DNA from: a virus | Reading direction: 5' to 3' (one strand) | Length of the DNA: 64,000 nt | IMG/VR virus record: IMGVR_UViG_3300043436_003510 | Coordinates: 5,937-69,936 of that record | Shown here: positions 34,516 through 61,531 of the stretch, one piece after another | Numbering within the stretch: position 1 is the stretch's first letter | Layout of the letters: each line of letters begins with the position of its first letter | Translations under genes and position numbers: made by a program | Notes under the pieces: model-generated | Told to the model about the DNA's origin: nothing | The model's database searches: none | What the model saw: only the letters and a program-made list of their open reading frames with translations

Positions 34516-36078
34516 GTGAAGAACCGTCGCGGATTTAATCCTGACGCACGAGTTAAGGACGCTGATTTTGCTTTCCGCATTTTAAGCGACTCTGTATTCA
34601 CTAAAGGATTTCTTGGTCCGAGTCTTCGCGAAAACAATGGACTTCCGTCTGTTGGTGTTTCTGCTGCGCGCCGTGCTGGCGTAATCGTTGATGAAAACGG
34701 AAAGATGCGTTGCCCCCCAGGCACCCCAAATGCTAACCAGTTCACCGATATCAACATGTCCAACTGTATGGTACCAAGTGCGGAAACAGCAGCCAGAAAT
34801 GTTGCCGAAGCAGCAGAAAAACTTGCTTCTCGCTCTGCTGATGGTTTTAAAAGGTCAAGCATTAAAAAGAAAAACAAAGATAGGGATTTGATTCCTGATG
34901 CAAAAGTTGGTTTTGCTGACACTAATGGCCTTCTTGAACAGAGAAGAGTTCCAGTAGGAAATCAAGTGATTTCACCAATTGATGGCTCAAGCATTGTTCT
35001 TCAATCACCTAGCGATTCAATTAAACATATAGCCGACGGTGGCGCACTTTCAGACATCCCCGACGAGCATCTAGTTGACGCGATTTTGAATAACGCCGTC
35101 GGAAAAGACGATAACTACATTGGCCCTCCTGTTCGTTTTGAAGTAGTCGGACGAGGTGGCGGAATCAACGGTATGACCCGTGTGATTGACGGGAAAACAG
35201 GAGCAATGATTGGTGTCAAGTACCCAGGGGGGACAGACACTTCTACTAAGCCATTTGCTGGAGATGAAGCCGTAAACGAAGCAGTCGCAGAGGTATTTCA
35301 GGAAATGATGGGTTACGAACCTACGCCAATGAGGCTTGCTATGGGTAAGGATGGATTTGGATTGGCTCTTGTGAGCGAACTAGTTCACAATAGAAACAGC
35401 GGGTCAATTGAGGGCATGCGCATGCACGAGCGTTCAGGTTCTTCGTATGAATACAATTTGCCACCCGAAGAAATAGTGCGTATGCGGGTTCTTGATGCAA
35501 TCATACAAAACCCTGATAGACATGAAGGTAATTCTTTAATTGCAGATGATGACGGAGTCAGGTCGCTTTTACCAATTGACAACTCAAGAGCGTTTTCTTT
35601 TTCAGACTTTACGGATGGCGTTCCAAAATCAAGATTAGAATCGGGTGAAGTCGTCGGATATTTCCAGCCATGGATTACCCCTGGAGGAGATGCCGAAATG
35701 GAAAAATTTGCTACAGACGAAGGTTTTGCTGAGTTAACTTCCACTATTGCAGGAATTCAACAACAGTTGAGAACAATTGACACAGACCTGATGGAAAGCA
35801 AAATTGACGAGGTTATTTCCCATGTTCGCTCTCTTGGTACATCGGCATCACAAGCCAGAAGAGATAACCTTGCGGCAGCAATTGCAAGAATAAAAGGAAT
35901 GCAAAACGGCAACCCAGAAGATATTGCGGAGGCGTTAATGCCTGCTTACAAAAGAAAGCAAGTTTTAGAAATTCTTGAACAAAGAGAAAAATATCGGCAG
36001 GCAGAGGAAGCAATGAACTTACGAGAACTTGCTGGCATTCCTGATACACCTAAAGAAAAGGTTCCGTCAGTAGCATGA
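34516..36078 (+). CDS. RCPPGT-tagged effector with HipA/PI4K-like kinase domain
   Basis: MRCPPGTPNANQFTD...NC; GVK, NEAVA, NPDRHEGN, LLPIDNSRAF. Confidence 0.75.
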   Translation: MKNRRGFNPDARVKDADFAFRILSDSVFTKGFLGPSLRENNGLPSVGVSAARRAGVIVDENGKMRCPPGTPNANQFTDINMSNCMVPSAETAARNVAEAAEKLASRSADGFKRSSIKKKNKDRDLIPDAKVGFADTNGLLEQRRVPVGNQVISPIDGSSIVLQSPSDSIKHIADGGALSDIPDEHLVDAILNNAVGKDDNYIGPPVRFEVVGRGGGINGMTRVIDGKTGAMIGVKYPGGTDTSTKPFAGDEAVNEAVAEVFQEMMGYEPTPMRLAMGKDGFGLALVSELVHNRNSGSIEGMRMHERSGSSYEYNLPPEEIVRMRVLDAIIQNPDRHEGNSLIADDDGVRSLLPIDNSRAFSFSDFTDGVPKSRLESGEVVGYFQPWITPGGDAEMEKFATDEGFAELTSTIAGIQQQLRTIDTDLMESKIDEVISHVRSLGTSASQARRDNLAAAIARIKGMQNGNPEDIAEALMPAYKRKQVLEILEQREKYRQAEEAMNLRELAGIPDTPKEKVPSVA

Positions 36079-36449
36079 AATACGCATTTATTGGTGGGGA
36101 TTCAAAAACTAAATTTGAGCCTTTGGTTTTTGTTCTTGACAACGGAAAATTTGAAATTATATGCGAATCTTTTGAGCGTCAAAAGTCTTACTATGAATAT
36201 CTGGCGTCAAGAAAATATAACAACTTTGATGATTTGCTTGCTACATTTTCTTACATGAATGTTGAGACTGGTGAAGTCACCCCTGAGGTAGAATCAATGT
36301 TGAACAAACTTCGCGCAAGGTTTGCTATATCTCAAGTTGCTGATGAAGAACTAAATACTGAAAACCAGCAAAACCCAGAAGAAGATAGACAACAAAATGC
36401 CTTATTGCGCATAAGTAAGAGGATGCGAACAGGTGCCAATGAACGCTGA
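36075..36449 (+). CDS. Small partner protein downstream of kinase (candidate immunity)
   Basis: ATGA overlap with kinase stop; acidic, beta-rich N-terminus. Confidence 0.55.
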   Translation: MKYAFIGGDSKTKFEPLVFVLDNGKFEIICESFERQKSYYEYLASRKYNNFDDLLATFSYMNVETGEVTPEVESMLNKLRARFAISQVADEELNTENQQNPEEDRQQNALLRISKRMRTGANER

Positions 36450-38619
36450 CAAGCACACATCAATAAAGAGCCTATTGCGTCATCAGCGACCACTAATGCT
36501 TGCCGACACCACTGTCAAAAGAACAATCATTGACGGGTATAAAACGCTAGAAGTGTCGCCAACTATCGCTAAATCTAAAGCAAAAAGATTCCTATTGGAC
36601 GGAAGCCAAAGCCAAAAGCGCCACTTAGAGCCACTCATTCGTTCTAAGTCATCCACGCTAAGAGGACAGTCTCCCCTCTCAGATAGAAACATTCTGAACT
36701 ACAAAGCCGCAATGTTCGCACGAACCACAAAGGCTCGCATCGGCTCCACCATGAACATCACAGAAGTCAAGGTTGGAATAATCGGTTCACAAGGAAGACT
36801 CGGACAAACGGTACAAGGTGCAGCAAGCGTTGTGATACCAGGCGACATGTCCGAAATCCGTAGCCCTATCCGCTCACGCATTTACTCTGCTCTTACACCT
36901 GGTGGCGGAGGAAATAGAAGAATTCCTGGAAGAAACGAACGCGGATACAGATGTCCTTTTGGTTTCCAGTATGGCGGTCGCTTCACGGATAGAAACTATT
37001 CAACTTGCGGCGCACAGTTGTTTGCATTGCCTACCTCTGGTGGCGTCGGTGGGTTAGGTGGTCGTAAGCCAAGCATTACGCCAGCAAATGCAGACAATCT
37101 TTCTCAGGTAATTGAAGGAAACACCGCTCAAGATAGAGCAATCCAGATTACAAGAATGGCTCAAGTTCCTAGAAGCGGTGCAGAGAATCCAAAGGTTCGC
37201 TCTGCCACTCTTTCCAGAATAATCACAAGCCTCACTGGTTCGCCATCTGGGGAATCTCGTTTAATTCGCAAAGATGGCGTTATTTTGCGTCCAGTGGTTC
37301 CATCTTCGGTCTTGCGAAACTTCGGTGGCAACCCCGACATGGAGAACGGCGTTTTTGTTCGCTCCATTGATAAACCTTCAGACATTATTGGCGACGACCT
37401 TGCTCTTCTTTCTGGTCCAGCCATTATGAATGTTTCCTATGTAGCACCTAACGGTTCGGTTATTTCTATTGAGCGTCAGCGTCCGTTGACGGTTGGAGAA
37501 CGGAGAAAATTTGGGCGTCAACTCAATGCAGTGGCTGGAACAAGCGACCAATATGATGTTGGTGGCAATATTCGGGATTTCGCTAATAACTCAGGCGGTG
37601 CTTTCAAATATTCAGAAAAGTTCCCTAATGTTGATAAACCTCTTGACCTCATTGAGGTAGAGAACGATAAGGGTAAGAAGATTCAAGTACGCCGATGGGT
37701 CTATGAAACCTTTATGAAGGATGGTTCTCGTTCAAATAATAAGACGAAGCCAGTAAGGGAAACAGAAACACTCAGAGAAGACGGCGCTACCGCCAACGAA
37801 ACAGTTGGAAACATTGCCGATGCGGTCAAAATGCTTGACGATGGTGGCGACCCGCTTGACCTTCCTCCTGATTTAATTGCTGACGCATTGCGCAGAAGTA
37901 AGAAATACGACGCCAAAAAACTTGGAACAGGCATAATTGAGTACTCCGACGGACAGGGCAAGATTTACTACCAAGTGCCAGAGTCTCTAAAGAATGGTGC
38001 AATCGCAGAACGCTTTTATACAGATGTTGCTTCTCAGGTTGGAATCAACACCCCTGGTGCTCGTCTTGTTGGCAAAGATGGCTCTCGTGAATCAATTCTT
38101 GCTGATGCAACAAATGGCTCGGTTCGTTCAGATTCCGACCTCACGCTTGACAAGGTTGACCCCAAAGAACTCATGAAGGTATTTGTTTCAGATTTCTTGA
38201 CAGATGCTCGTGACAGGTCACCAGCAACATTGAGACCAGTAAGAACACAGTCTGGAACCGCTGTAGTTCCGTCTTCAAATGAACTTTCTGCTCTTGCTGG
38301 CTTAGACGCTGCAGACATCAAAAAGAGATTTAATATTGATTTGCCAGACTATTTGGAAGGCCGCAACGGAATGATTTATCGCAACTCGTTCGGCAATATG
38401 ACAGCGAAACAACGGACGGACGCAACCAGCGTCTATGATACGCTTATTGAGCGAGCAAGAAAATTCAAATGGTCGGAATATGCTTCCAGAATTTCAGCAG
38501 ATGGCGACTTGTCAATAGCCGAGCAAAAACATCTTGACATTCTTAAAAGACTTTACGAAACTCGCCTAGAAAAACTAACTTCGCGCAAAAAAGAAGCACT
38601 ACGCCTACTTGGGATTTAA
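36433..38619 (+). CDS. RCP-tagged protein with degenerate HipA-like kinase domain
   Basis: YRCPFGFQYGGRFTDRNYSTCG; AERF...A..VG..TP, SDFL....DRSPAT lacking catalytic H/N and the IDxG motif. Confidence 0.65.
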   Translation: MPMNADKHTSIKSLLRHQRPLMLADTTVKRTIIDGYKTLEVSPTIAKSKAKRFLLDGSQSQKRHLEPLIRSKSSTLRGQSPLSDRNILNYKAAMFARTTKARIGSTMNITEVKVGIIGSQGRLGQTVQGAASVVIPGDMSEIRSPIRSRIYSALTPGGGGNRRIPGRNERGYRCPFGFQYGGRFTDRNYSTCGAQLFALPTSGGVGGLGGRKPSITPANADNLSQVIEGNTAQDRAIQITRMAQVPRSGAENPKVRSATLSRIITSLTGSPSGESRLIRKDGVILRPVVPSSVLRNFGGNPDMENGVFVRSIDKPSDIIGDDLALLSGPAIMNVSYVAPNGSVISIERQRPLTVGERRKFGRQLNAVAGTSDQYDVGGNIRDFANNSGGAFKYSEKFPNVDKPLDLIEVENDKGKKIQVRRWVYETFMKDGSRSNNKTKPVRETETLREDGATANETVGNIADAVKMLDDGGDPLDLPPDLIADALRRSKKYDAKKLGTGIIEYSDGQGKIYYQVPESLKNGAIAERFYTDVASQVGINTPGARLVGKDGSRESILADATNGSVRSDSDLTLDKVDPKELMKVFVSDFLTDARDRSPATLRPVRTQSGTAVVPSSNELSALAGLDAADIKKRFNIDLPDYLEGRNGMIYRNSFGNMTAKQRTDATSVYDTLIERARKFKWSEYASRISADGDLSIAEQKHLDILKRLYETRLEKLTSRKKEALRLLGI

Positions 38620-38621: not shown

Positions 38622-41600
38622 ATGCAGTCAGCCTACATTATCAACGACAGAACTGGAAAGCCATACGCAGTTGTTGGCATCCTCGCTGGGGGAACAGAGT
38701 TCTATCCGATTGCTGAATCCGCAACCTCGTGGGCTTCGTGGATGACCCAAGATTTCGCTGCTAAGAAAATCACTAAAGAGCAACTCTCTGTCACTCTTGA
38801 TAACTCAATGTCTGTTGAAGGACCGATGCTCGCCAACCGTGCAAACAAAACAAAAATTGATGAACTCATCAAAAAAGCCAAGAAAGTACCTAAAGGCGAA
38901 TCAGACAAAGAAGAAACGGAACAGACAGAAGAAAAGTCTCTCGTCCCCGTTTTGTCACTTATGGATGTTCGTCTTGATGCACTTGAAAATTCAGACTGGC
39001 GCAACGCAGTAAACTTCAAAGCGAAGTCGCTTATCACTGATTCAAATAAATCAACATTTGCTTACGAAGTTAAGCGTACTCGCGCAGCATGGGACCCAGG
39101 TCTTGCCATCCCAGGAACTGAGCGCCGCGGCGGGTGGCGTTGTCCTCCAGGCACACGGTACGGCGGTCAAATTACAGACCGTTTTGGAAGAAACTGTGGT
39201 TGGGGTGTTGCCCGCCGTTTAGCAAATGAAATCTCTGACCTTGGTGAGCGGCTAGAGAATGTTGGCGACCAGCGTCGTGAGCGTCGTGTGAATCGTCGTA
39301 ACGAACGAGTTGCCCGCCGTCTTGTTGAAGGCGGTCGTGTTGAGCGTGCAGCCCGTGCAGTTGGTAACGCATTAGAGACGGGTCCAGAGCGTGAGCGTCG
39401 TCCTGGAGTAGTGGAGCGTGCAGCAGGTCGTCTTGGTGACCTTCTTGAGACAACCGCTCCAGAAAAGCCAAAGAAGCCAGGCCGTCAACGCCGTGGAGAA
39501 AACAACCGAGGTGGGTTGTTGGAGCGTGCAGCAGGTCGTCTTGCGGAGGCTCTTGAAACAGATGACTCACCAGCAAAGCCAGCCCCACGCCGTCCTCGTC
39601 CGAAGGCTCCACAGGCTCGTCCTGCTCGTCCACGCCAACCTCGCGCGCCTCGCGAAGACAGAGACATGCCAGAGTTGCCCAAGTTGCCCAACTTTAATCC
39701 AAATGACCCCGTTGGAAACAGGCAGAGATATCTTGCTCAAAAAAAACGAGAACTTGAGCAACAAAAACGAGAAGCAAAAAGAAACCGACCAGACGGCGTA
39801 TCAAACAAAGACTGGAACGACTACAAAGCGCATGTTGACTCGTTACAGCATCAATTTGGCTATGGAGGAGCAGACAGATTTGTGTCTGTTGATTCATACG
39901 AAGATTGGGCACGCAAAAACAATAGAAAAGTTCCAGATGCTGGTCCTAAACCCCAAGCACCCCGCCGCCCTCGTCCTGCTCCCGACAACACAAGCAAGAC
40001 GCCAGTTCCTGCGGGCGCACCTAAAGCAAACGAAACACTAGAGCAATACAAGACTCGTAAATACAACGAGCACCAGGCTCGCGTTCGTAAAATCCGTGAA
40101 GAAGGCGGTAACGCTGGATTCTTGAGAAGAGAAGAGTGGGAACAATTCCACGGTTCAGCAGTTGAAGAAAACTGGAATCGCGCTCAACAAAGAAACGGTG
40201 GTCGTGGTGCTCGCCGTGCAGCGACAGATGCTGGCGCAGCGAGAACAGCAACTCGCCGTCCAAAACCAGCAGATGAACCTGATGCGGTTCAGCCTGCCCG
40301 TCGTCAACGCCTTCCTTTTAAGCCATGGGGTCATCAGCGTGGGCTCGCAAATCAAGAGGCCGCATTTAAGAAACTTGACCGAATCCAAGATGAAGCAATG
40401 AACGCAAATGACTTTCAAGTTCGTGAGCCAGCAGTTGTGAAACTTAACGGCAAGTTTTATGTTGTAGAAAACGCCGAAGACCTACAGAAAGCACTTGATG
40501 CTGGCGGAGAAAAAATGAGAAGAGGCGCAAACGGCTTACCGAATCCTGCACCGAATCCTGCGAGACCAAGACCAGCAGCACCTCGCCGTCCTCGCCCACA
40601 GGCTCCACAACCCGCCCGTCCCCGCCCGCAGGCCCCACAGGCTCCACAGCCCGCCCGTCCCCGTGGTGGAAATGTTCGCCCAATGAACAACAGCAAAGAC
40701 CGCCACCAAAAGAGCCTTCCATTATTGGCTGGGCCAGATGGAAAAATTGTGCGAGTCCCTATTGGGAATAAAGGAATCAATACAAAAGAGGATGCAGTTG
40801 CCTATCGCGGTTCGCTAAATGACATTCCTGATGATTTCCTCTTTGACGCTATGGATGCTAGGTCTGACAATCTAAGAGGAAACCCTAATCTTCTTTCAGA
40901 TGTTGCAGTGGCGAGGACTAACCCAGCAGCGTTAACGGCCCAGGATAAAGCAGAACTTTTGAGAATTAAACAATCTGGCAAAGACTTTATTGCTTTGCGA
41001 GGTCAGAGTATTACTGCTCCAACATTTTATTTACATATTGCTGATGATGGAAGCATTGATGGGCGCGGATATCTCAGCAAGCCTCAAGACCCACACTCAG
41101 AAGGAAGAGGACAGCACGGAGAACTTGTCGGCATTGAAATATCACGGCGTGTAGGTTTTGCACAAGGAATGCCAAGAGTTGTGAATAGAAACAATACAGC
41201 GGCATTTCTTCTTGAATTGGGACCCAACTTTGCTGAAGGACATGCTGCGGATTATAGCGGTAGAAACATTGCGGATGAGCGTTCCAGAATGGCACACTTT
41301 GCTGTCAATATGCTTCTTGCGTCTGGGGACAGACATGGAAGAAACGGAATGTACTTCCCAGGTAACGGCGCTCTTCCAATTGACTTTGGTCGCGCATTTG
41401 AACAGGATAGTGGAGTGCCCACCGCAGCAAGAATGGCCTCATATGTCAGCAGATTACATATGGACAGTAGTCCATTAGATGGATACAAGGCATTAGTCAG
41501 TAACGGTTCCTTAACCAAAGAACAAGCAAAGAGGCGACTCAAGGAAGACCTGATGGAAATGGCAATAGCCATCCAGGGAATGGTTGACGACGGAACATAT

Positions 41601-41738
41601 GATTCATTTGAGTCATTGATTCCGAATGTGGCTTCTGGCAACGGACACTGGCTGCCCGTAGCGCAGCGTAAAACAAAACTGGAAGCACGAATTGCATTAC
41701 TTGACTCTGATGCCTTTATCAATGCTCTTTGGCCGTAA
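38622..41738 (+). CDS. RCPPGT-tagged effector with C-terminal HipA/PI4K-like kinase
   Basis: WRCPPGTRYGGQITDRFGRNCG; R/P-rich linkers; YLSK, GELVG, GDRHGRN, LPIDFGRAF. Confidence 0.75.
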   Translation: MQSAYIINDRTGKPYAVVGILAGGTEFYPIAESATSWASWMTQDFAAKKITKEQLSVTLDNSMSVEGPMLANRANKTKIDELIKKAKKVPKGESDKEETEQTEEKSLVPVLSLMDVRLDALENSDWRNAVNFKAKSLITDSNKSTFAYEVKRTRAAWDPGLAIPGTERRGGWRCPPGTRYGGQITDRFGRNCGWGVARRLANEISDLGERLENVGDQRRERRVNRRNERVARRLVEGGRVERAARAVGNALETGPERERRPGVVERAAGRLGDLLETTAPEKPKKPGRQRRGENNRGGLLERAAGRLAEALETDDSPAKPAPRRPRPKAPQARPARPRQPRAPREDRDMPELPKLPNFNPNDPVGNRQRYLAQKKRELEQQKREAKRNRPDGVSNKDWNDYKAHVDSLQHQFGYGGADRFVSVDSYEDWARKNNRKVPDAGPKPQAPRRPRPAPDNTSKTPVPAGAPKANETLEQYKTRKYNEHQARVRKIREEGGNAGFLRREEWEQFHGSAVEENWNRAQQRNGGRGARRAATDAGAARTATRRPKPADEPDAVQPARRQRLPFKPWGHQRGLANQEAAFKKLDRIQDEAMNANDFQVREPAVVKLNGKFYVVENAEDLQKALDAGGEKMRRGANGLPNPAPNPARPRPAAPRRPRPQAPQPARPRPQAPQAPQPARPRGGNVRPMNNSKDRHQKSLPLLAGPDGKIVRVPIGNKGINTKEDAVAYRGSLNDIPDDFLFDAMDARSDNLRGNPNLLSDVAVARTNPAALTAQDKAELLRIKQSGKDFIALRGQSITAPTFYLHIADDGSIDGRGYLSKPQDPHSEGRGQHGELVGIEISRRVGFAQGMPRVVNRNNTAAFLLELGPNFAEGHAADYSGRNIADERSRMAHFAVNMLLASGDRHGRNGMYFPGNGALPIDFGRAFEQDSGVPTAARMASYVSRLHMDSSPLDGYKALVSNGSLTKEQAKRRLKEDLMEMAIAIQGMVDDGTYDSFESLIPNVASGNGHWLPVAQRKTKLEARIALLDSDAFINALWP

Positions 41739-41764: not shown

Positions 41765-42031
41765 ATGATTAAGAAAATTGCAATTTTAAATGACCCAAAG
41801 TTTATTTTGTCATGTGATGGAGATTCTTTGGAAGTTATCGGAAACGATGAAATAGTTGAACAACTGCGTGCAATAGTTGCAAGCAAAAAATCAACTTACA
41901 ACGGATTTAGACAGAGTATGGGTGATTCTTTTGACCCTGTTGATTATTTGGCTACTTCATCAATGACTTTTATGCCCACATATCACGAGTATTCAAAAGA
42001 AAAACTTGAAGAACTCAAAAAGATAATCTAA
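41765..42031 (+). CDS. Small partner protein downstream of kinase (candidate immunity)
   Basis: 88 aa; TAGGAT 6 nt before ATG suggests its own leaderless promoter. Confidence 0.55.
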   Translation: MIKKIAILNDPKFILSCDGDSLEVIGNDEIVEQLRAIVASKKSTYNGFRQSMGDSFDPVDYLATSSMTFMPTYHEYSKEKLEELKKII

Positions 42032-42032: not shown

Positions 42033-45000
42033 ATGCAAAACGAACTCGCTACATATAGGGCAAAATCTTTTACGGCTGAAGCAAACAAATCCTCAATTGC
42101 TTACGAGGTGAAGCGCACCCGTGCCGTCTTTGACAACAGTCTTTCAATCCCTGGGACAAACCGCCGCGGCGGTTGGCGTTGCCCACCAGGAACTCGTTAC
42201 GGTGGACAAATTACCGACCGATTCGGAAGAAACTGCGGCTGGGGTGTATCACGCAGAATCGCTAACGAAATTTCTGACATTGGCGAAAGATTAGAGTCTG
42301 TTTCTGAAAGAAGACAAAGACGGCGCGAGGCGAGAGTTTCTGCACGCAGGGGTCGCCCTGGTGTCGTTGAGCGTGCAGCAGGTCGTATCGCAGATGCTTT
42401 AGAAACTGATTCCCCCGCAGGGGAAACTCCTCGTAGGGGTCGTGAACGAAGAGGACCTTCTCGTCGCCGTCCAAACTTGCGCGATTCGGAACAGCGCAGA
42501 ATGGACAGAGAAATTGACGAACCTGGCGCTTTAAGAACAGGTCAAAGCCGACGCCGCCGTGCAACTACTGAAGTTGTTGACCGTCCACGCCCTCCTGCTC
42601 CAGTTGCTGAACCTGCAAAGAAAGTACCTGCAAAGAAGAAAGCAGCAAAGAAGAAGGCCGTAGCGAAAAAGGCTCCCGCCAAAAAGGTACCCGCAAAGAA
42701 GGCTCCTGCCAAGAAGAACCCGTATGAGGCTTCTTTCCAGAGACTTGGTTGGAGACAAGACGGAGACAAATGGGTTAAAGGAAACTGGGAGATAAGCGTC
42801 AACGAGGATGGCGATTTAGTAGCGAAACACCGAAAAACAGGTGAAATCATTGAACAAGGCAGGGCTGATGGAGTATCAACCGCAGACCATATGTATGTGT
42901 TTGAGGGGATATTAAGCAGTCTTGATTCAGATTTCCCTTCCACGCCGCCTAGACCTGACGAACCAGCAAAGAAACCTGCCAAAAAGAAGCCAGCAAAGAA
43001 GGCGGCCCGTTCTAAAGTCCCTGCAAAACTACGACTTGACAGCGACGATGCTGCCAACTCGGAAAGAATGCGTCAGGCCCGCGCCGATAGAGAACGAGGC
43101 GCTGGCGAAAAAGTTGACTTAGGGCAAGTAATGGACGACGACAGAATAAACGAATATCTGTTGGATGTCATAAACAATGGGCGTTTAGAGATAATCAACG
43201 ACCGCAACAACTTTGGTCAGACAGAGCCCGAGAGATTCAGGGCGGCTACTAGGGCAGAAGCAAAAATATCACAGGCACAAGCGCGACTTGAAAGAATTCA
43301 GCGATTAATAAATAGAGGCGATTTGGCCGATAATGATTACTTGCAATTTGAAGTTGACGGCGAGCGATTCAATATAGCAAATGTAAAAACTCGTCTGAGA
43401 GACAACATAGACGCATGGGAAGAAGTTTTAAAGTTAAATAAAGAAAAGACGCCCAAAAACAAAAAACCAATCGCCCCAGATGCAGGTCGCGAAGGCTCAA
43501 CTGCACTTAACGGAATTCGTCAGAGAATCGCTGATGGGAAGCGTCATCGGAGCGCCGACTTCGCAAAAAATACGCCTATGACTCCAGAGGAGTTAAAAAA
43601 AGTTGCTGGTTTAACAGCCGAACAAGCACGGCAATACGATGCAACGGTAGCAAGGTCCCTTGCAGAAGACAAAGAATGGATTAAGAGATACAGCATCCAA
43701 GAGATTGAAGGGAACTTGCGGCGGATAAATATTGATGCCTACCGCAGAGCACTCAATGACCGCATTAAAGAACTGAGAGATAATAGTCCGACGGCAACAA
43801 TGGACGAAATTGTTGAATTGCAAAGAAGGGTTTCTCTCAGCAATGCCTCACTAAGAGAAGCAATTGGAAAGCAAGAAAATTTCAATCAACGACTGAAGGA
43901 ACTTCGGGCAAAAGCAAAAAACCCCGATAGTGCATTGCGCGATAAGATTCGGGCTGCTGGAGTGATTGTCGTTGGCGACACTCCATTAAACGCTGACCAA
44001 CTATTACGGTTTGGTGGTGTTTTGGAAGCAGACTTTAACGGAATGCAAGAACGCATACAACTCGGCAAAAACCTACTTGCGCGCGATATGAAATCGTGGA
44101 CCAAAGAAAACATTGCGGAACTTCGTGCAGTCGTTGCTGGCACAGACCGTGAAGTGAAGGGGGCAAAACGGGATTTGAAATTCAGCCTTGAACGAATGAG
44201 AACATTGGGACCCAACGCTAGTGATAGCGACTTCCAGAGACTTAAAGCCGATGTAATAGCAGCCAATATTAATTATGCGCAAATGATAAACAGGCGTCAA
44301 GCGCTTACTGACCGCCTAGAAAAACTTGGAGCGCCTAAAGAAGAATCAGCACCCGAACCAATAGATGGTCTTCGGGTTGTGTTTGCAGGAAGACGACCAG
44401 GATTTGAAAGAGATTGGGATGCTGAACGCCGACGGGTCAGTGATATGGCTGGAACTTTTGTCAATCTTGACGAAGATGCAGTTACGGCTAAAATTCGTGA
44501 CATTAATCAAAACCTTGATTACAACCGAGAGTATCTTAACAATCTCACAGCAATGAATCCTGAGCAAAGAATACAACTTCCAAACAGGGTTGTTAAGGCT
44601 GGCGACTTAAAGGACGAAGTCCAAGGTGTTGTAGATGCATGGCAAGGCGCGAAAGATGCAGCAAATGACAGGCTGATAAGAATCAACTCAAACCGTTTGC
44701 CTGGTTTGGCGGGCCAAAGAATTTTCCGAGGTCAAAATATTGATGGTTTTGGAACTGTTGAAATAGCGGAAAGGCAGTTCAATGAATTGCTGACGAACAA
44801 CCCTGATACTCGTTTTAATCTCATTAATCATAACGGCAGATTTTATGCTGTTTCACAAAGCCAACTTGACAATGCGCGACTTAACGGTCTGAACAATCCG
44901 ACAATCTTAAAAACCAAAGGTGGGCTACCGCTCGCTAATGAACTTCCACCAGTTGACGCGGAAGTTGCTAGGCAAGCAAAAGAGCGTGTAGATAAGGCAA

Positions 45001-45839
45001 TCAAACAGCGGCAAGATGTTCTGGCTGGGTACCTTGATAAACGCTACGGGTCTGGGAATGCTCCGTGGAAAGAAATGACGGCAGAGCGAAGAATTGAACT
45101 TGCTCAACGGGCTGCACAAGGTGATTCTACAGCGAAGCGGGAACTTCGTGAATGGGCGAAAGCAATGTATAGCCATGATGAAATTGAAGGAAAAAATGGC
45201 AAAACATACAGAATTGTTGCAACACCAACAGTGGGCTCTCAATCTATTAAAATCGTTTCCCAAATACAAAGAAAACAGGCAGACGGAACCTGGCTTGATG
45301 TGGGTGGCAGTGAACGAACGATTTATCATAACGCAGTCCCAGCACATGTATATAACAACAGCATGTTTATCAATGTTGCCGAAGACAAAAATGCGGGAAT
45401 TCAAACAATCTACAATCAACACGCTTGGATGTATGCCCAAGCCTCTGGGTTTGAATACATCAGTGTGAGCGCCGTACAAGATGGACCGTATGTTTGGGGA
45501 AGAGTTGGATTTACTGAGGAAATTAGACCCACTCAAATTTCGGCAATGAATGCCCAAGTTGCCAACTTCCGCGATGGTCAAGGAAATTCAATTGTTAAAA
45601 ACGAAACAGATGCTCGTATTCTGGAGCATTTAATTGGAGAATATATTAGAAACCCCCGCAGCGTCAGACACGCTGATTTTATTCTTGCCCTAACAATTGA
45701 AGGCTCTCCAGCAGAAAAGAAAGAACGCGAAAAAGAACTGAGAGACTGGTTTGTTGTAAACATGCAATTCGGTAGCGGAAAGTTAAACTTGAACGATAAT
45801 AAAATCTCTGCTGACCCACGAGAAAGAGTAAGGACATAA
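42033..45839 (+). CDS. RCPPGT-tagged effector with PAKK repeats and C-terminal GNAT-like acetyltransferase
   Basis: Same N-terminal tag as 38622; KNAGIQT, GFEYISVSAVQDGPYVWGRVGF. Confidence 0.7.
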   Translation: MQNELATYRAKSFTAEANKSSIAYEVKRTRAVFDNSLSIPGTNRRGGWRCPPGTRYGGQITDRFGRNCGWGVSRRIANEISDIGERLESVSERRQRRREARVSARRGRPGVVERAAGRIADALETDSPAGETPRRGRERRGPSRRRPNLRDSEQRRMDREIDEPGALRTGQSRRRRATTEVVDRPRPPAPVAEPAKKVPAKKKAAKKKAVAKKAPAKKVPAKKAPAKKNPYEASFQRLGWRQDGDKWVKGNWEISVNEDGDLVAKHRKTGEIIEQGRADGVSTADHMYVFEGILSSLDSDFPSTPPRPDEPAKKPAKKKPAKKAARSKVPAKLRLDSDDAANSERMRQARADRERGAGEKVDLGQVMDDDRINEYLLDVINNGRLEIINDRNNFGQTEPERFRAATRAEAKISQAQARLERIQRLINRGDLADNDYLQFEVDGERFNIANVKTRLRDNIDAWEEVLKLNKEKTPKNKKPIAPDAGREGSTALNGIRQRIADGKRHRSADFAKNTPMTPEELKKVAGLTAEQARQYDATVARSLAEDKEWIKRYSIQEIEGNLRRINIDAYRRALNDRIKELRDNSPTATMDEIVELQRRVSLSNASLREAIGKQENFNQRLKELRAKAKNPDSALRDKIRAAGVIVVGDTPLNADQLLRFGGVLEADFNGMQERIQLGKNLLARDMKSWTKENIAELRAVVAGTDREVKGAKRDLKFSLERMRTLGPNASDSDFQRLKADVIAANINYAQMINRRQALTDRLEKLGAPKEESAPEPIDGLRVVFAGRRPGFERDWDAERRRVSDMAGTFVNLDEDAVTAKIRDINQNLDYNREYLNNLTAMNPEQRIQLPNRVVKAGDLKDEVQGVVDAWQGAKDAANDRLIRINSNRLPGLAGQRIFRGQNIDGFGTVEIAERQFNELLTNNPDTRFNLINHNGRFYAVSQSQLDNARLNGLNNPTILKTKGGLPLANELPPVDAEVARQAKERVDKAIKQRQDVLAGYLDKRYGSGNAPWKEMTAERRIELAQRAAQGDSTAKRELREWAKAMYSHDEIEGKNGKTYRIVATPTVGSQSIKIVSQIQRKQADGTWLDVGGSERTIYHNAVPAHVYNNSMFINVAEDKNAGIQTIYNQHAWMYAQASGFEYISVSAVQDGPYVWGRVGFTEEIRPTQISAMNAQVANFRDGQGNSIVKNETDARILEHLIGEYIRNPRSVRHADFILALTIEGSPAEKKEREKELRDWFVVNMQFGSGKLNLNDNKISADPRERVRT

Positions 45840-45841: not shown

Positions 45842-46105
45842 ATGGCTCTCTTTACAGAAGAACAAAAAAGAGATATTCGCGAATATGTCTTTAAACTTGA
45901 ATCAAAAAAGCGTTCTAAAATACTTCAGTGCGTTGGAATACTTCAAGCAGACGGAGAAGATGAAGACACGCTGGTAGCAACAATGTACCAGATGGCATCA
46001 AACCCAAAAGACCTTGACAGAATACATAAGGCTCTTGTCAATTCAGCCCTCGCTGCAGGTCCTGCTTTTGAAGTAGAAAAAAAACCTGACCCTAAAGAAG
46101 GGTGA
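45842..46105 (+). CDS. Small helical partner downstream of GNAT effector (candidate immunity)
   Basis: Starts 2 nt after effector stop; helix-EDED-helix. Confidence 0.55.
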   Translation: MALFTEEQKRDIREYVFKLESKKRSKILQCVGILQADGEDEDTLVATMYQMASNPKDLDRIHKALVNSALAAGPAFEVEKKPDPKEG

Positions 46106-53459: not shown

Positions 53460-53933
53460 GTGGATAACAAATTAATTACACTTCCAGTCGTCTCCAATAT
53501 TGAGGAGGCAAAAAACTGGAACAAGAAATTCAAGTCCGTACTAACCGTCGGACCTAAAAAATTAGAGGTTGATTGGGGTCACCCAAATCACCGAATCTTT
53601 GAATTTGGCGATACCACGGGAGGACTCAACGCTCCCAAGATTGAAGAAATCAAGGAAGCGGTATTTTGGGGGGCAGAACAGGACGACCTTTTGGTTCACT
53701 GTCATGCTGGAATGTCTCGCTCAACATCTACGGCATGGGGAATCTCCATTGCTCGTGGGGCTGACCCGCTTGATTCATTTCTTGCTCTCAAAGAGGCTCA
53801 CCCAATGGATAGTCGCTCTCGCAAGAGGGACTTCATTCCCAATAGGCTTATTGTCAAGCATTTAATGGAAATATTTGACAACCAAGACTTAGAACTTATT
53901 AGAAAAGAACACTCACATGATGGATGGTACTAA
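53460..53933 (+). CDS. Cys-based protein tyrosine/dual-specificity phosphatase
   Basis: F.D, LLVHCHAGMSRS (HCX5R), PN. Confidence 0.88.
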   Translation: MDNKLITLPVVSNIEEAKNWNKKFKSVLTVGPKKLEVDWGHPNHRIFEFGDTTGGLNAPKIEEIKEAVFWGAEQDDLLVHCHAGMSRSTSTAWGISIARGADPLDSFLALKEAHPMDSRSRKRDFIPNRLIVKHLMEIFDNQDLELIRKEHSHDGWY

Positions 53934-53934
53934 A

Positions 53935-54855
53935 ATGAAAATTTACTACAACGAAAACTACACCGCTTCAAAGTATGCATTTGACACGACACGCAAGTCT
54001 CGTGCTATTGCTCAACGACTAGAAGTCAACCCAATCGCGAACCTAGAACTCACAGACCCCGAAACAGAAGCATTTACTGATGTTGACGGTCAGGTGACGG
54101 AGAGCAATTTCTCTCAGGTTGCTATTCAGCACCTTCAGAAACTCCACGACAATACATATTTTGAGGCTGTACTCAAAGGTAACCCTAGGGACTTGGCTGA
54201 ATCTCAAGGATTTGACTGGGACGAAGGAATCTACAAGATGGCTGTCTCTCATGCGTCGGGTCTCATTGCTGCTACACACGAAGCGTTAAGCAACAAGACA
54301 ACTTCAGGGAGTCTTTCATCAGGACTGCATCACGCTCACCTTTCATACGGCGCAGGGTTTTGCACATTCAATGGTCTCGCTGCTTCTGCTGATTACGCTA
54401 TTGAAGCATTCGGCGCAGAGCGTGTATTGATTCTTGACTTTGACGCTCACGCAGGTGGTGGAACATGGGAAATTGTCAACACTTACCACCCTGACAATGT
54501 TGTACAAGTTGATGTAACTTGCGCTGCTTTTGACACCTGGACACCAGAGGGCGAAAGTTCCATCTGGTACACAGGGCATCAGGATTACCGCAAGGATATT
54601 GACCGTGCTCTTGTGTACGCTTCCAAAAAGTTAGACAAGTTTGACCTAATTATTTACAACGCAGGCATGGACCCCCTCAACAGTGGCGTTTCCCTGGACG
54701 ACATTGTTTATCGTGAAGATGCTGTTCGTAACTTCATTGGAGATACTCCAGCAATCTACGCTCTTGCAGGTGGATACACATGGGGCAACAAGACAATGGA
54801 TGATGTCGTGGATTGGCACAGCATCACCCTGAAGACTTGGGCTGAGGCTAAGTAA
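53935..54855 (+). CDS. Zn-dependent histone-deacetylase-family enzyme
   Basis: GLHHA, GFCTFNG, ILDFDAH.G.GT, YNAGMDP, LAGGY. Confidence 0.9.
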   Translation: MKIYYNENYTASKYAFDTTRKSRAIAQRLEVNPIANLELTDPETEAFTDVDGQVTESNFSQVAIQHLQKLHDNTYFEAVLKGNPRDLAESQGFDWDEGIYKMAVSHASGLIAATHEALSNKTTSGSLSSGLHHAHLSYGAGFCTFNGLAASADYAIEAFGAERVLILDFDAHAGGGTWEIVNTYHPDNVVQVDVTCAAFDTWTPEGESSIWYTGHQDYRKDIDRALVYASKKLDKFDLIIYNAGMDPLNSGVSLDDIVYREDAVRNFIGDTPAIYALAGGYTWGNKTMDDVVDWHSITLKTWAEAK

Positions 54856-54874: not shown

Positions 54875-56647
54875 ATGTTCTCATTCCGTTTAAAGACTGG
54901 TAGAAATGCTGCTTCCGAATTAGGGGGCAGCATTTCTGTTGGTGCCAAGGCACTCGGACGCACTATCGGTCAAGCCCCACCCTCTGTCAAGCCTTCAGAA
55001 GAAGACGGAGATGGAGATGGGTTTAGAACTGGACCCGACGGCAGGGACAATATTCCAGTCACAAAACTACCTGAAATATTGACTACCGAAGCCTTAAAAA
55101 AAATGCGTTCCGACATTAACCCCGATTTTTTAAATCGTGAAAAAAGCCCGCAAAAAGACGACGGCGACGAGATGTTAAGTGCCGAAGAATTAATGAAACT
55201 CCCTGCGGAGAATTCACATAATCTTTCACTACTAGACGAAGAGTCATCAGACTACCTAGATAACCAACGCAAAATAAATTCTGGTTATATGAATCAGCGT
55301 GTGCGCAAAGATGGCGTCTTTATGCCAATCATCTTGCGAGAATGGGCTGATGGGACAAGAAGTATTTTTGATGGACATCATCGTCTTATAGCCGCATATG
55401 ATAATCACCCCAATTTTCAAGTTCCCGTATTCGTTTGGAAAGAAGAAGGAAATATGGAGGATGAGTTTAAGTCACTTGTAAGACAACTCACTGGTTTGGA
55501 AGTAAAGATTCTGGGGGCTCCTATCGGCGGTCTTGGTGACCCTTCAGACTTTGACGGCGATGGCGACGGATTTCTAACTGGACCCGACGGCAGGGACAAT
55601 ATTCCCGCACCAACACAAGTCGTTGACAATCTAAAAGGTGCGTGGAACAAACTGCGCGAAAAGAAAATGGCTGGCGACGAAGCCCGTGCCATCAAGGCCG
55701 CAAACCTTGTTAAAGGCAAGAAGCCAAAGACCCCTCAGGAAATAAACCAACTTCTAAGAGGCGCACGAACAAGGGAAGATGTGGTTGAGGCGAGAAAAAA
55801 TGTTCGTGAATGGGCCGAGTCAATTTTTGCTTTTGACGGATTAGGTGATGACGGCAGTAACAAAGTCGTAATATTTAAGGGTAAAACTGGCGTAAATATT
55901 GTTGGCAGAAAAAGAGAAGTTCCGTCGGTAAACGACCAAGACCCTGACGAGCCTTATCTACACATCAGAATCTCAGGCAAGATTGTTGACAAAGACGGTA
56001 AGGAAGTTGGCCTCTTTGAAAGAAGAGTTTTTCTTGACGACTACAACGCCGCTAAAAAACCGCACATATACAACGAAATTTTAAGAATGCAGCCAGAAGC
56101 AAGGGGTAAGGGAATCGGAGCGGATTTTACTCTTGCCTCAGAAGCACAATATGCGGCGATGGGACTAGATGAAATGCGCCTCAATGCTGGACTTGCGGAC
56201 GGCGTTTACACATGGCTTCGTGCTGGATACAGGTTTAAAAACGACAAAGAGCGTATTGACTTTGCCGAGACAATAGAAAAAAGATATCAGGCAATGCTGA
56301 AGGATGCTGGCAGTAAAGAAAACCTCATTAAGGGCGGATTTATGACGAGCGTTGGTGGCCGTGCATTTGACGACGACAAGACCGTAAAAATGCCAGAACC
56401 ACTGTTTGAGAGCATGGAACAACTGGAACTTTTCCTTAAATTTTTAGGAAGAGCAAAAGGTTCTCCGCAGGGGTCAGACAGGGAAATTCCGCCTGCGGCT
56501 TTTACGCTTTTTGGTGATTTTTCAAAAAGATTAATGCGTGGCATGAATAACGACCTCGTCAAGGATATTAACCCTAGTTTTTCCGTAAAAGAGAAAACGC
56601 TTGTTATTACAGGGCTTGACATTCTCACTACAAGGGTGTATGATTAG
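54875..56647 (+). CDS. DGDGDG-tagged effector: ParB-like domain + GNAT-like acetyltransferase
   Basis: Two DGDGDGF.TGPDGRDNIP tags; PII...IFDGHHRL.A; RGKGIG, L.AGL.DGVYTWLRAGY. Confidence 0.75.
   Translation: MFSFRLKTGRNAASELGGSISVGAKALGRTIGQAPPSVKPSEEDGDGDGFRTGPDGRDNIPVTKLPEILTTEALKKMRSDINPDFLNREKSPQKDDGDEMLSAEELMKLPAENSHNLSLLDEESSDYLDNQRKINSGYMNQRVRKDGVFMPIILREWADGTRSIFDGHHRLIAAYDNHPNFQVPVFVWKEEGNMEDEFKSLVRQLTGLEVKILGAPIGGLGDPSDFDGDGDGFLTGPDGRDNIPAPTQVVDNLKGAWNKLREKKMAGDEARAIKAANLVKGKKPKTPQEINQLLRGARTREDVVEARKNVREWAESIFAFDGLGDDGSNKVVIFKGKTGVNIVGRKREVPSVNDQDPDEPYLHIRISGKIVDKDGKEVGLFERRVFLDDYNAAKKPHIYNEILRMQPEARGKGIGADFTLASEAQYAAMGLDEMRLNAGLADGVYTWLRAGYRFKNDKERIDFAETIEKRYQAMLKDAGSKENLIKGGFMTSVGGRAFDDDKTVKMPEPLFESMEQLELFLKFLGRAKGSPQGSDREIPPAAFTLFGDFSKRLMRGMNNDLVKDINPSFSVKEKTLVITGLDILTTRVYD
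55027..55605 (+). repeat. Identical 30-bp direct repeat (55027-55056 and 55576-55605)
   Basis: aactggacccgacggcagggacaatattcc x2, encoding TGPDGRDNIP. Confidence 0.85.
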
Positions 56648-56650
56648 GCC

Positions 56651-56833
56651 ATGAATTACGAAGTAGAAATAATCAAAATTCTTATGGATAATAATGAAGT
56701 TCGCAAAGATTATCCACGCATTTGTGCTGTTGCAAAAGCGGTCGCACGAGAAGATGAAGACTATATGGAATATCTATGGGCTTACACCTCTGGCAAGCGA
56801 GACTGGAAAAAAGTAGAAAAAGAACTCGGCTGA
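56651..56833 (+). CDS. Small helical partner downstream of GNAT effector (candidate immunity)
   Basis: 60 aa, helix-EDED-helix; TATGAT 6 nt before ATG. Confidence 0.55.
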   Translation: MNYEVEIIKILMDNNEVRKDYPRICAVAKAVAREDEDYMEYLWAYTSGKRDWKKVEKELG

Positions 56834-56835
56834 AG

Positions 56836-57163: not shown

Positions 57164-57172
57164 GGAACAAAA

Positions 57173-57882: not shown

Positions 57883-57916
57883 ACTAAACGACAAATAACT
57901 ACTAGAAAAGGAAATC

Positions 57917-59327: not shown

Positions 59328-59363
59328 ATAAATTTAACCGACTCTAGAGAGGCTTTTATATAT

Positions 59364-60026: not shown

Positions 60027-60055
60027 CGCGTAGCGCCAAGCGCAAAATTTTAAAA

Positions 60056-61531
60056 TTATGCTTTTCTGTTTTTGGGAAGCAAAACAACTTTTTTGATTGA
60101 GTCATCATCTTTGTCTGGTTTTGCTCCAGCAAAGCCGTCACATAATGCTGTAACTTTCCCAGTTACATCAGGATATATATCTTTGACAGACTTGCGTATA
60201 AGACCGTCTTTCACTTTGGCTGATTTCGCTTTCAACCAGTCCGCCATCTTGCCCCAATGAGTAGGCGTGTGGCCCTCTTCGTACCCCATCAACCCTTGAG
60301 AAATTGTTTCAGCAACAAACTCTAAACCGTTAACCGAGGCGTACCCACTTACCTTTTGCCATTCCTCTCGTTGTGCAATATCCGCCCGCTCACTATCTGA
60401 CAAATCGTCCCATAGAGCATCTCTGTCGTTGAAGCGCGTGAAGTAAAACTTTTCAGCCTCTTCCATTAAATACATGAGCGCTAAACGCCGTCGCTCAGCA
60501 TCGGACTTGTCTTTATATCTAGCCTTGTCGCCTCTTATAAGAAGTTCACCACGAATGGCTACCTCTAATTCCTCATCCGTATCAAAACGCTGCCAATACC
60601 TTTCGGTAGACATTGCTTTTAAGTTTGCTACCAATTCCTTTTCAGACCTAGCATTAAAATTGATGCCATCCTTTTCAACAGCACGAAGAATATGTTTAGC
60701 GTGACCAAACTCATGAGAAGCAAGATATGCACCATAAAAAGAATCAATATCTTCCTTTGAATAACCAGCATCCCTCATGTCGGTAATAATCTTCAGCCCC
60801 CACCCATGGTCTCTCGCAAAAATAGGTTCCTTGTCTGGGCTAAAATCCAACCCAGCAAAAAATGGCTTGTCAGCGTTATCACTAGCGCCATACACAAAAA
60901 CGCCAGGAAGATTGCCACCAAACAAGCCCCCCGTCATCTTGCCGTCAACAGAAATAACATCAAGACGCTTAGCAGTTTCAGGGTCACGCTCGGCACCCTC
61001 CAAAAGCATCACAACACGAGAAACATCAATATTGCGAACAGAACCATCTTCATTGCGCGAAGGATACAAAGCAGTTAAATCTAAATCTTTATACAAATTA
61101 GGGAAAGCAGAACGAACAGCCTTACTCATATTTTTAGGGTCACGAATATCGCCGTGCTTTTTAGAAAACTTCTTCTCCAAGTTATCCAAGTTATCCAAAA
61201 TACTTTCAGCAGATTTAAACGGTTTGCGCTCCTTCCATTCAACAGAATTCTTAAAAGCCCACATTTGTTTAACAACATCGCCCCTATCATTCAAAACATT
61301 AATCTGCTCAATATCATTCTCATGCGAATGAGGTAAACGGAAAAACCTCAAAACACTGCCATTACGCTGAACCAAAGACTCAATATTCTTAGGAGCAGGA
61401 ACATTATCTCTGCCGTCAGGGCCCGTTAAAAAGCCATCACCATCACCATCAAAATCAGAAGGCTTCACAGGCTTAGCCGCACCAATAGCACGACCCAAAA
61501 CCTTCACACCAGAAATATCAGACAAACGCAT
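60056..61531 (-). CDS. DGDGDG-tagged effector with zincin metallopeptidase domain
   Basis: VKVLGRAIG..KPSDFDGDGDGFLTGPDGRDNVPAP; HEFGH and VSGYA..N..EFVAE. Confidence 0.8.
   Translation of the reverse strand: MRLSDISGVKVLGRAIGAAKPVKPSDFDGDGDGFLTGPDGRDNVPAPKNIESLVQRNGSVLRFFRLPHSHENDIEQINVLNDRGDVVKQMWAFKNSVEWKERKPFKSAESILDNLDNLEKKFSKKHGDIRDPKNMSKAVRSAFPNLYKDLDLTALYPSRNEDGSVRNIDVSRVVMLLEGAERDPETAKRLDVISVDGKMTGGLFGGNLPGVFVYGASDNADKPFFAGLDFSPDKEPIFARDHGWGLKIITDMRDAGYSKEDIDSFYGAYLASHEFGHAKHILRAVEKDGINFNARSEKELVANLKAMSTERYWQRFDTDEELEVAIRGELLIRGDKARYKDKSDAERRRLALMYLMEEAEKFYFTRFNDRDALWDDLSDSERADIAQREEWQKVSGYASVNGLEFVAETISQGLMGYEEGHTPTHWGKMADWLKAKSAKVKDGLIRKSVKDIYPDVTGKVTALCDGFAGAKPDKDDDSIKKVVLLPKNRKA

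Follow-up and report, generated by a model that had tools for sequence, protein, structure and literature searches.

The stretch of DNA described here, called the window, is 64,000 nucleotides (nt) long and corresponds to bases 5937-69936 of the 69.9-kb IMG/VR virus record IMGVR_UViG_3300043436_003510 (CheckV completeness 47%); it is a portion of the genome of an uncultured myovirus. Six large open reading frames (ORFs) of the window share one of two conserved peptide modules, named here tag 1 and tag 2, which are joined to C-terminal domains of different kinds, and four of these ORFs are interleaved with small ORFs between the genes for the prohead protease and the major capsid protein. The preferred interpretation is that the tagged enzymes are capsid cargo delivered to the next host, a reading to which an even chance is assigned. 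The six ORFs, designated in the following by their first coordinate, had been listed in a preliminary description of this DNA made from its letters, and all of them are present:

34516..36078, plus strand: type A tagged protein, with tag 1 at nt 34651-34830 and a PI3/4K/HipA-like kinase domain at nt 35005-35943
36433..38619, plus strand: type B tagged protein, with tag 1 at nt 36865-37047 and a C-terminal pseudokinase
38622..41738, plus strand: type C tagged protein, with an N-terminal domain, tag 1 at nt 39054-39260, a basic linker and a kinase domain at nt 40764-41732
42033..45839, plus strand: type C tagged protein, with tag 1 at nt 42093-42299, a basic Lys/Ala/Pro-rich linker and a GNAT-fold domain at nt 44868-45830
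54875..56647, plus strand: protein with tag 2 at nt 54944-55066, a ParB-like domain, a second tag 2 at nt 55502-55621 and a GNAT domain
60056..61540, minus strand: protein with tag 2 at nt 61385-61510 and an HExxHxxH domain, a putative metallopeptidase (alternative start ATG at 61531)

Tag 1 consists of about 70-100 amino acids (aa) around the motif R-C-P-x-G...T-D...C and is found in 34516, 36433, 38622 and 42033. The similarity between 38622 and 42033 extends over ~220 residues with 48% identity (BLASTP E 8e-50), and the other pairs gave E values of 1e-5 (36433 vs 42033), 5e-4 (34516 vs 42033) and 4e-4 (34516 vs 38622); in the four-way alignment the residues R, C, P, G, T, D and C of the motif are invariant. 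The motif starts at residue 65 in 34516, at residue 173 in both 36433 and 38622 and at residue 49 in 42033, being therefore located within the N-terminal part of all four proteins, not at the terminus. The two shared tags of the preliminary description are thus both real (E 8e-50 to 5e-4 for tag 1 and 9e-14 for tag 2), but they are not strictly N-terminal as it had supposed, and tag 2 is often internal or repeated. In the 38622/42033 pair, 58 of 70 residues of tag 1 are identical and the same codon is used at only 27 of those; tag 2 behaves like tag 1 when codon usage is compared with peptide identity. Because residues are identical while codons differ, the tag peptides appear to be under strong purifying selection, and the same comparison points to tags that were not recently copied, with no recent gene conversion. 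Searches of all six frames with hidden Markov models (HMMs) of the tags gave no further tagged ORFs in the window.

Tag 2 covers ~40 aa around DGDGDGF-TGPDGRDN-P, including ~15 residues upstream of it, and links 54875 to 60056. The former protein has two copies, at aa 44 and aa 227, a doubling that the preliminary description had not mentioned; they flank the ParB-like insert; its homologue in the related locus L075 is without this insert and without the second tag 2, and in the L072 homologue of 60056 the tag again flanks an inserted domain. Among 13 database proteins with tag 2, 11 carry it at aa 20-58, and at least four C-terminal classes can be distinguished, namely an HExxH family, a GNAT family and at least two classes that are alike in the tag only. 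An independent tag-2 HMM, derived from 11 database segments with proteases and window sequences excluded, matches the prohead proteases of L073 and L074 (residue 508-535 of 778, E 2e-18) and those of other relatives, with E values of ~1e-15 in L076-L078, 5e-13 in L079/L080 and 3e-4 in L054; it also matches many head-module proteins encoded after the small-ORF family s2, described below, or beside the capsid gene. The protease of the window itself has a degenerate tag-2-like stretch at about aa 198-244 (BLAST E 0.024). In L024, a homologue of 60056 occupies a head-module slot and combines DUF3721 repeats, tag 2 and an HExxH domain. Since a prohead protease must by its definition be enclosed in the procapsid, the presence of tag 2 in the protease, in neighbouring head proteins and in enzymes may be taken as the most telling indirect hint at an association with the capsid or at processing by the protease.

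The head module occupies the plus strand from position 28,155, on the basis of ORF calls and Pfam, and its reference genes are the following:

28155..30347, plus strand: portal with a C-terminal MuF domain and no effector tail (Pfam Phage_portal E 9e-51, Phage_Mu_F E 3e-9)
30715..32856, plus strand: prohead serine protease S78, 713 aa (Pfam Peptidase_S78 E 2e-11)
32872..34269, plus strand: acidic 465-aa protein, scaffold-like by position, kept upstream of the tagged genes in related loci
46109..47350, plus strand: DUF3721/DUF5824 head-module protein (Pfam)
47486..48793, plus strand: HK97-fold major capsid protein (Pfam Phage_capsid E 7e-47)

A 74-aa ORF follows the gene of the acidic protein and precedes the four tag-1 ORFs, whose position between prohead protease and major capsid gene is as the preliminary description had given it; the same applies to the MuF domain, which sits on the portal with no toxin tail and was not found by Pfam in any of the six tagged ORFs. 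The counterparts of the 46109 protein in relatives carry tag 2 and variable C-termini in the slot beside the capsid gene. The capsid protein shares 46-50% identity with those of Gordonia Bendigovirus phages and of the Brevibacterium phage Cantare (Cantarevirus), which are myoviruses with large unannotated ORFs, too, between the portal and capsid genes. At the nucleotide level, a megablast search with a 20.6 kb query gave no relatives among 50,697 phage records.

From IMG/VR, 68 loci with tag 1 and 11 with tag 2 were retrieved by pattern scans, and one locus from the tag-2 search brings the loci having tag-1 ORFs to 69. A motif scan of the related loci yielded 162 tag-1 ORFs, corresponding to 100 distinct complete proteins that are grouped into type A (34516-like, 15), type B (36433-like, 30) and type C (38622/42033-like, 55). 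The usual gene order is scaffold-like protein, small ORF, type A, small ORF, type B, type C with kinase, small ORF, type C with GNAT, s2, DUF3721 protein and capsid. The tagged genes have a constant place in the head module: in all 56 tag-1 loci having a head marker they stand between the protease/scaffold and capsid genes, the other 13 of the 69 being without such a marker within their ~12 kb. A search with the tag-1 profile against 1.84 billion cluster representatives gave 544 matches at E<=1e-3, of which 281 reach E<=1e-10. The 150 of the 544 matches that were listed range from 87 to 4,629 aa and contain, according to local HMMs, a kinase only (57), a GNAT only (47), both (19) or neither (27); at least two tag-1 copies are present in 37 of them, and tag 1 starts at a median of 8% of the protein length (95th percentile 26%).

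The type A proteins are those in which the C-terminus varies most widely. The search with their tag region gave 152 matches, and the 120 listed all contain tag 1, with the motif near residue 60-70 in 114; their C-termini were assigned to eight classes, with 63 kinases, 35 in a class recorded as unknown, 6 DUF3626 domains, 4 short C-termini and the remaining classes with 7, 3, 1 and 1 members. The C-termini of type A are truly polymorphic, and the picture of a polymorphic toxin would fit only a part of the family. The DUF3626 C-terminus replaces the kinase in some type A proteins, as observed in L007 (2189-3877), P0082, P0086, P0094, P0096, P0107 and P0109 (Pfam E 1e-9 to 2e-10). For the commonest C-terminus of the unknown class (P0040), the ESM Atlas value of 0.76 is at noise level and was not used. 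In both tag families, profile searches with tabulation of the C-termini show the tag joined to different C-terminal domains in many phages, in line with the preliminary description.

Some relatives join several units of tag and payload into proteins of 2-4.6 thousand residues. Giant two-tag proteins are encoded directly after the protease and a ~610-aa protein in L067-L071. Two further arrangements were observed, that is, tag-tag-GNAT-kinase in relatives of 1.8-3 thousand residues and, in P0239 (4,528 aa), one tag 1 followed by seven tandem GNAT-like domains and a C-terminal kinase. Because multi-tag, multi-payload fusions occur beside separate genes, the evolutionary unit is the tag with its payload, present as separate genes or concatenated.

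Pfam and PHROGs gave almost no matches on the six tagged ORFs and the small ORFs, and the payloads were characterized mainly by family profiles, invariant residues and models. The kinase domain of 34516 matches Pfam PI3_PI4_kinase at E 4e-4 with 20.8 bits, under the 27.1 cut-off, and that of 38622 gives no match. However, among relatives P0106 is above this cut-off (31.9 bits), and P0043 matches HipA_2 with 24.2 bits, below 27. The catalytic residues K, E, D-R-H-x-x-N and D are invariant in 32/32 type A and type C kinase domains, whose identity to 38622 is 10-38%, and the kinase profile searched against the PDB finds the catalytic and activation loops of PI3K, PI4K, mTOR and Tel1 (E 1.6e-4 and weaker). 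In contrast, the type B domain has D-R-S, with the catalytic H and N missing in 15/15 domains including that of 36433. The two kinases and one pseudokinase that had been read from the window are in agreement with these data.

The two GNAT-like domains previously claimed are likewise borne out. The last 330 residues of 42033 were modelled by AlphaFold2 with a predicted local distance difference test (pLDDT) of 86.5, and all 50 matches listed for this model by VIA-align are GNAT-type acyltransferase domains (Z 6.8-8.8, root-mean-square deviation 2.5-4.8 A, 94-138 residues aligned), including Elp3, NatD and the toxins AtaT and TacT, the latter two at Z 7.3-7.6. Foldseek gave HAT1, NatD and p300 with probability 0.95-1.0, yet E 1.8e-3 or weaker, and the profile of the 42033-type domain has no sequence match in the PDB. 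The C-terminus of 54875 is related to the 42033 GNAT domain (BLASTP E 3.8e-5), and the whole of 54875 gave only a chance-level match in the PDB (E 2). The acetyl-CoA pyrophosphate-binding motif of GNAT enzymes is R/Q-x-x-G-x-G/A; at this place 54875 has R-G-K-G-I-G and 42033 has K-N-A-G-I-Q, which departs from the motif. The ParB-like region of 54875 (aa 126-197) matches PHROG ParB-like families at E 0.003 and 0.005 and contains a DGHHR motif, without a Pfam match. In 60056, the HExxHxxH motif and a downstream ELVAE are invariant in 8/8 homologues with 27-75% identity; the zincin of the preliminary description is thus a putative one, recognized by its motif, with no match in Pfam or PHROG. Peptidase_M90 was considered for this protein and rejected, the ESM Atlas value of 0.84 (best 0.84-0.88) being below the 0.9 mark and the Atlas model being poor (pLDDT 0.51).

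In 36433, 38622 and 42033, tag 1 is followed by an Arg- or Lys/Ala/Pro-rich basic linker, and the net charges of the three proteins are +28, +44 and +48, respectively; a strong positive charge of this kind fits proteins lying with DNA. The AlphaFold2 model of residues 1-235 of 38622 shows a small domain at aa 1-90 (pLDDT ~95), then the tag and then a long basic helix. The N-terminal domain (38622-38891, plus strand), a small alpha/beta domain forming aa 1-90 of the 1038-aa protein, precedes tag 1 in 38622-type proteins and shows a weak similarity, at the profile level, to families s1 and s3 of the small ORFs (E 0.03-0.05).

Four of the tagged ORFs are directly followed by a small ORF, as had been noticed earlier:

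36075..36449, plus strand: small ORF of 124 aa, family s1, overlapping both neighbouring genes; 26 distinct homologues
41765..42031, plus strand: small ORF of 88 aa, family s3, with 9 distinct homologues, located between type C genes
45842..46105, plus strand: small ORF of 87 aa, family s2, after the GNAT of 42033; 17 distinct homologues
56651..56833, plus strand: small ORF of 60 aa, after the GNAT of 54875, with a 60% identical homologue behind a GNAT gene in L075

Because of the distinct homologues of the 36075, 45842 and 41765 families, these small ORFs are judged to be real genes. An s2-family ORF is located behind 18/19 distinct complete ORFs with a C-terminal GNAT, the nineteenth being 54875 with its 60-aa ORF, and a small ORF from one of at least eight families is found behind 55/64 kinase-bearing ORFs; in particular, s1 homologues follow kinase-bearing ORFs in 26 cases in the related loci. 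For 45842 and the GNAT domain of 42033, the model of the complex reached a score of 0.74, the best of three controls having 0.00, and passes a mark reached by 58/80 solved complexes and 2/110 mismatched pairs. At least 55% of the contacts are common to the runs, the pLDDT of the partner is at least 74, and the modelled interface includes domain residues 182-195, which we take to be the strand-4 to helix-3 region, the usual acetyl-CoA site. This model supports the binding of the predicted 45842 product to the upstream GNAT domain. The 56651 product has no detectable similarity to family s2 (hhalign probability 3%); comparisons of the small ORFs with each other and with the N-terminal domain of 38622 gave nothing with BLAST and E 0.01-0.05 with probability <=8% with hhalign, and a BFVD search returned weak matches only (E 0.05-0.3), to phage proteins of ~70-125 aa. 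The small ORFs were also considered as split-off N-termini of the next gene, and this was rejected, since the type C proteins that bear the N-terminal domain also have a small ORF upstream.

Two genes that had been proposed as erasers of the modifications are located just upstream of the GNAT gene 54875:

53460..53933, plus strand: phosphatase-like protein with an HCX5R motif (Pfam DSPc E 0.0023, 18.2 bits, cut-off 33.5)
53917..54855, plus strand: HDAC-family deacetylase (Pfam Hist_deacetyl E 8e-22, 78.3 bits, cut-off 27.9)

The deacetylase of the preliminary description is therefore present, but its phosphatase is represented by a sub-threshold DSPc match and the HCX5R motif. The HDAC gene is next to the tag2-GNAT gene also in L075, and an HDAC homologue is nearby in L081 and L082; the basis for pairing these genes with the tagged enzymes is adjacency only.

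The head-morphogenesis operon has thus grown by a paralogous family of modular proteins, in which each unit is made of a conserved peptide module, a linker that is basic in the 36433, 38622 and 42033 types and an enzymatic payload. In the mechanism that we propose, the tags could anchor the payloads inside the procapsid or label the sites at which the prohead protease processes the proteins. The enzymes would therefore enter the capsid together with the DNA and leave with it for the next host, whose proteins or nucleic acids they could modify at an early stage of infection. The small downstream ORFs may keep the enzyme inactive, or act as chaperones, in the producing cell, a role modelled for the 45842/GNAT pair only. 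A broader and more doubtful version, which we advance tentatively, is that two portable modules serve, across a large clade of uncultured phages, as general encapsidation or processing addresses for toxin-type enzymes, each silenced by a small cognate partner until packaged, with the unit shuffled between genes and polyproteins.

Several results weigh against the delivery of the tagged enzymes as cargo or against parts of this scheme. Both tags are absent from 50,697 phage records searched by tblastn, in which the low-complexity filter may have masked tag 2, and in the head regions of the nearest isolates, Gordonia phage DalanDe and Cantare, neither a motif search nor HMMs detected a tag, kinase, GNAT or s2; in the large head-region ORFs of these two phages Pfam gives only the protease and a LysM domain. 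The prohead protease of the window is not matched by the independent tag-2 HMM, and 54875 and 60056 are outside the head operon, the latter being encoded on the opposite strand with non-structural genes as neighbours. In 38622, the motif of tag 1 is poorly modelled (AlphaFold2 pLDDT 41-69), and fold searches gave no known fold for the tag-1 model or the N-terminal domain, these searches being dominated by the long helix and uninformative on both. The polymorphic C-termini claimed at the outset hold for type A, to which hypervariability is mainly confined, but type C proteins carry mostly a kinase and/or a GNAT (123 of the 150 representatives listed). In the same way, the cognate small partners stand for the 45842/GNAT pair by modelled binding, but the post-kinase ORFs belong to many families, s1 occurs also where no kinase is upstream and the two post-GNAT ORFs of the window are dissimilar; moreover, the complex was run on custom alignments, and the model may remember solved GNAT toxin-antitoxin complexes.

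Among the alternatives, the one that survives best, though we consider it unlikely, is that the enzymes work during assembly without being injected, docked by their tags to the procapsid or scaffold, where phage proteins are modified before the enzymes are degraded or left behind. This would account for the same facts of position and tags as the cargo reading; the phage deacetylase and phosphatase-like protein could reverse modifications on the phage's own proteins, and the pseudokinase kept in 15/15 type B domains fits a scaffold-like or regulatory role. However, several large and strongly basic paralogues, together with giant multi-payload fusions, are more suggestive of cargo than of assembly enzymes, and partners of inhibitory appearance would be needless for enzymes working in the producing cell.

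It is rather improbable that the tagged proteins are mainly structural, that is, inner-core or DNA-organising proteins comparable to an inner body or ejectosome, in which the modules oligomerise or bind the portal and the enzymes are secondary or inactive. The basic Arg/Lys-rich linkers, the long predicted helix behind tag 1 and the catalytically dead type B would agree with such a function, as would the size and number of the paralogues, which resemble the inner-head families of giant phages. In contrast, the catalytic residues of type A and type C kinases are invariant in all 32 domains in spite of their low identity, the GNAT domains preserve both their fold and the residues of its core, and the type A payloads exchange between unrelated domains.

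We give little credit to the possibility that the tagged proteins are true polymorphic toxins for bacterial or phage competition, released at lysis or carried on particles, with the small ORFs providing immunity for lysogens or kin. A constant module, a variable C-terminus and a small downstream gene are indeed present, HipA-like kinases and GNATs are classic toxin folds, with TacT and AtaT among the structural matches, and the 45842/GNAT partner model passes. However, no integrase or lysogeny module is seen in the annotated parts of the window, there is no secretion- or MuF-linked N-terminus, the immunity-like ORFs belong to the late module, with which they are co-transcribed, and do not form stand-alone cassettes, and the type C payloads are conserved and not hypervariable. 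Finally, that the tags are mere linkers or processing sites (protease cleavage, calcium-binding spacers) inherited by duplication, with no addressing role, deserves scant credence: tag 2 does occur between domains and inside the protease, tag 1 is repeated in giant polyproteins and DxDxDG is a common calcium-binding loop pattern, but the tags are far above their flanks in conservation, over 69 profile positions and across differing payloads, which is more than a spacer needs, and processing and addressing are compatible.

The surroundings of the tagged genes include the following two features:

1-27,816, minus strand: region with large terminase, baseplate J protein and collagen-like fibre protein
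30347-30664, plus strand: thioredoxin, between the portal and prohead protease genes (Pfam E 3e-26)

ORFs of 1,130 and 500 aa on the minus strand of the first region probably belong to the tail module, and a PAPS-reductase-domain protein (22728-23894, minus strand) is encoded between the terminase gene and the tail genes. The thioredoxin is not at the portal/protease position in related loci such as L073 and L074. Tag 1 has two invariant Cys residues with a spacing of 17 residues, and Cys is abundant in the prohead protease and in the 465-aa protein, so that redox reactions during head assembly are a conceivable function. Residues 341-409 of the acidic 465-aa protein have 51% identity to the C-terminal end of the DalanDe protease, a "capsid maturation protease" of 1,633 aa (12940-17841, L002) in which the protease domain lies ~1,130 residues in; cultured relatives thus seem to fuse large regions of unknown nature and the segment of the 465-aa protein to the protease.

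In the 46109 protein, the DUF3721 motif is N-terminal and DUF5824 C-terminal, and two more Cys-containing DUF3721-like stretches can be recognized by eye. In the capsid protein, ~159 residues precede the Pfam capsid domain, with Q-S-K-S-L-G-G at about aa 93-100, which resembles the Lys/Ser-Leu-Gly maturation site of HK97. If this is the maturation site, the protease cuts after Lys, and this could be a guide to the processing sites in the tagged proteins. Directly 3' of the capsid gene are located the genes of an Asp/Asn beta-hydroxylase-like protein (48840-49394, plus strand, Pfam E 1e-16) and then of a DUF6321 protein (49437-49808, plus strand); a B12-dependent (class II) ribonucleotide reductase gene (50714-52693, minus strand) breaks up the plus-strand block.

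The concept of capsid-loaded effectors is not new and is covered by the polyvalent proteins, by the targeting sequences of T4 and by the ejection paralogues of giant phages. Polyvalent proteins contain kinase, GNAT, ParB-like and zincin domains, are thought to be delivered with the invading DNA and show a cassette-like variation that was likened to polymorphic toxins (Iyer et al. 2017, PMC5512222). The giant relatives described here, with tag-tag-GNAT-kinase or seven GNAT-like domains and a kinase, fit this group, as do 54875, which combines ParB-like and GNAT domains, and the 19 of 150 representatives listed that have both GNAT and kinase. In contrast, the other five ORFs of the window have a single payload, its payloads are mostly distributed over individual genes, each having a tag of its own, and MuF is not the linking domain. 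Moreover, the kinase of polyvalent proteins belongs to a truncated Ser/Thr family and that of the tagged proteins is PI3/4K/HipA-like with a full catalytic loop, and the RCP and DGDGDGF modules were not met in the portion of the article considered (PMC5512222).

The internal proteins of T4 and Alt have a short capsid-targeting propeptide, and Alt is an enzyme that modifies host proteins; in SPN3US and phiKZ, paralogous ejection proteins have propeptides of more than 100 aa that are removed by the prohead protease (PMC5694885). Such proteins enter the prohead, are cut there by its protease and reach the host by ejection. The tagged family is similar in being formed of paralogous head-module proteins that share an addressing-like segment, packaging and cleavage being putative here. 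It differs in that no sequence relation exists, the tags are 20-300 residues in, internal or repeated, and the protease is HK97-type S78. The MuF polymorphic toxins of temperate phages have a head-associated constant domain, a toxic C-terminus and a small immunity gene (Jamet et al. 2017, PMC5576092), unlike the present system, in which MuF is on the portal without a payload, the tags are unrelated to MuF and the annotated parts show no lysogeny module. The Dar system of phage P1 (DarA, DarB, DdrB) incorporates large enzymes, among them a protein with a ParB-like domain, in the head, and their injection serves the protection or establishment of the DNA (PMC5512222). No homology to Dar was detected here.

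A further comparison is with the type II toxin-antitoxin pairs HipA-HipB and TacT/AtaT-TacA/AtaR. The likeness consists in a HipA-like kinase or a GNAT followed by a small gene, whose product is modelled over the cofactor-side face of the enzyme. The differences are the toxin-first order, the small proteins without Pfam match and the enzymes, which are C-terminal domains of head-module proteins of 500-1,300 aa.

A prior description of the tagged family was not found in the literature on phage ejection and virion enzymes, HipA-like capsid kinases and freshwater actinophages, supplementary files being outside the scope of this search, and the word "kinase" is absent from the text of a freshwater phage survey (PMC6802176). 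The new elements are tag 1 and tag 2 as constant modules, the use of a PI3/4K/HipA-like kinase and of the present GNAT family as payloads, the conserved pseudokinase paralogue, the tag and payload unit that is split or fused and the modelled GNAT partner.

How tailed phages choose the proteins packed beside their DNA is understood for few models, such as T4, P1 Dar, N4 and phiKZ. The tags are a sequence-defined candidate address that several hundred protein clusters contain; they occur in head modules of the HK97 type and are linked to enzymes with folds familiar mainly from bacterial toxins. Even if they do not direct loading, the window and its relatives would still represent an unusual expansion of enzymatic paralogues within a head operon. 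If the broader version given above is true, the payloads would be new injected host-takeover enzymes derived from toxin-antitoxin folds, and the tags could address arbitrary proteins into HK97-type heads. Tags that direct loading would offer a handle to predict injected effectors in metagenomic phages, a tool to package foreign proteins into capsids and some insight into the passage of kinase, acetyltransferase and partner modules from roles of the toxin-antitoxin kind to roles as virion cargo and back.

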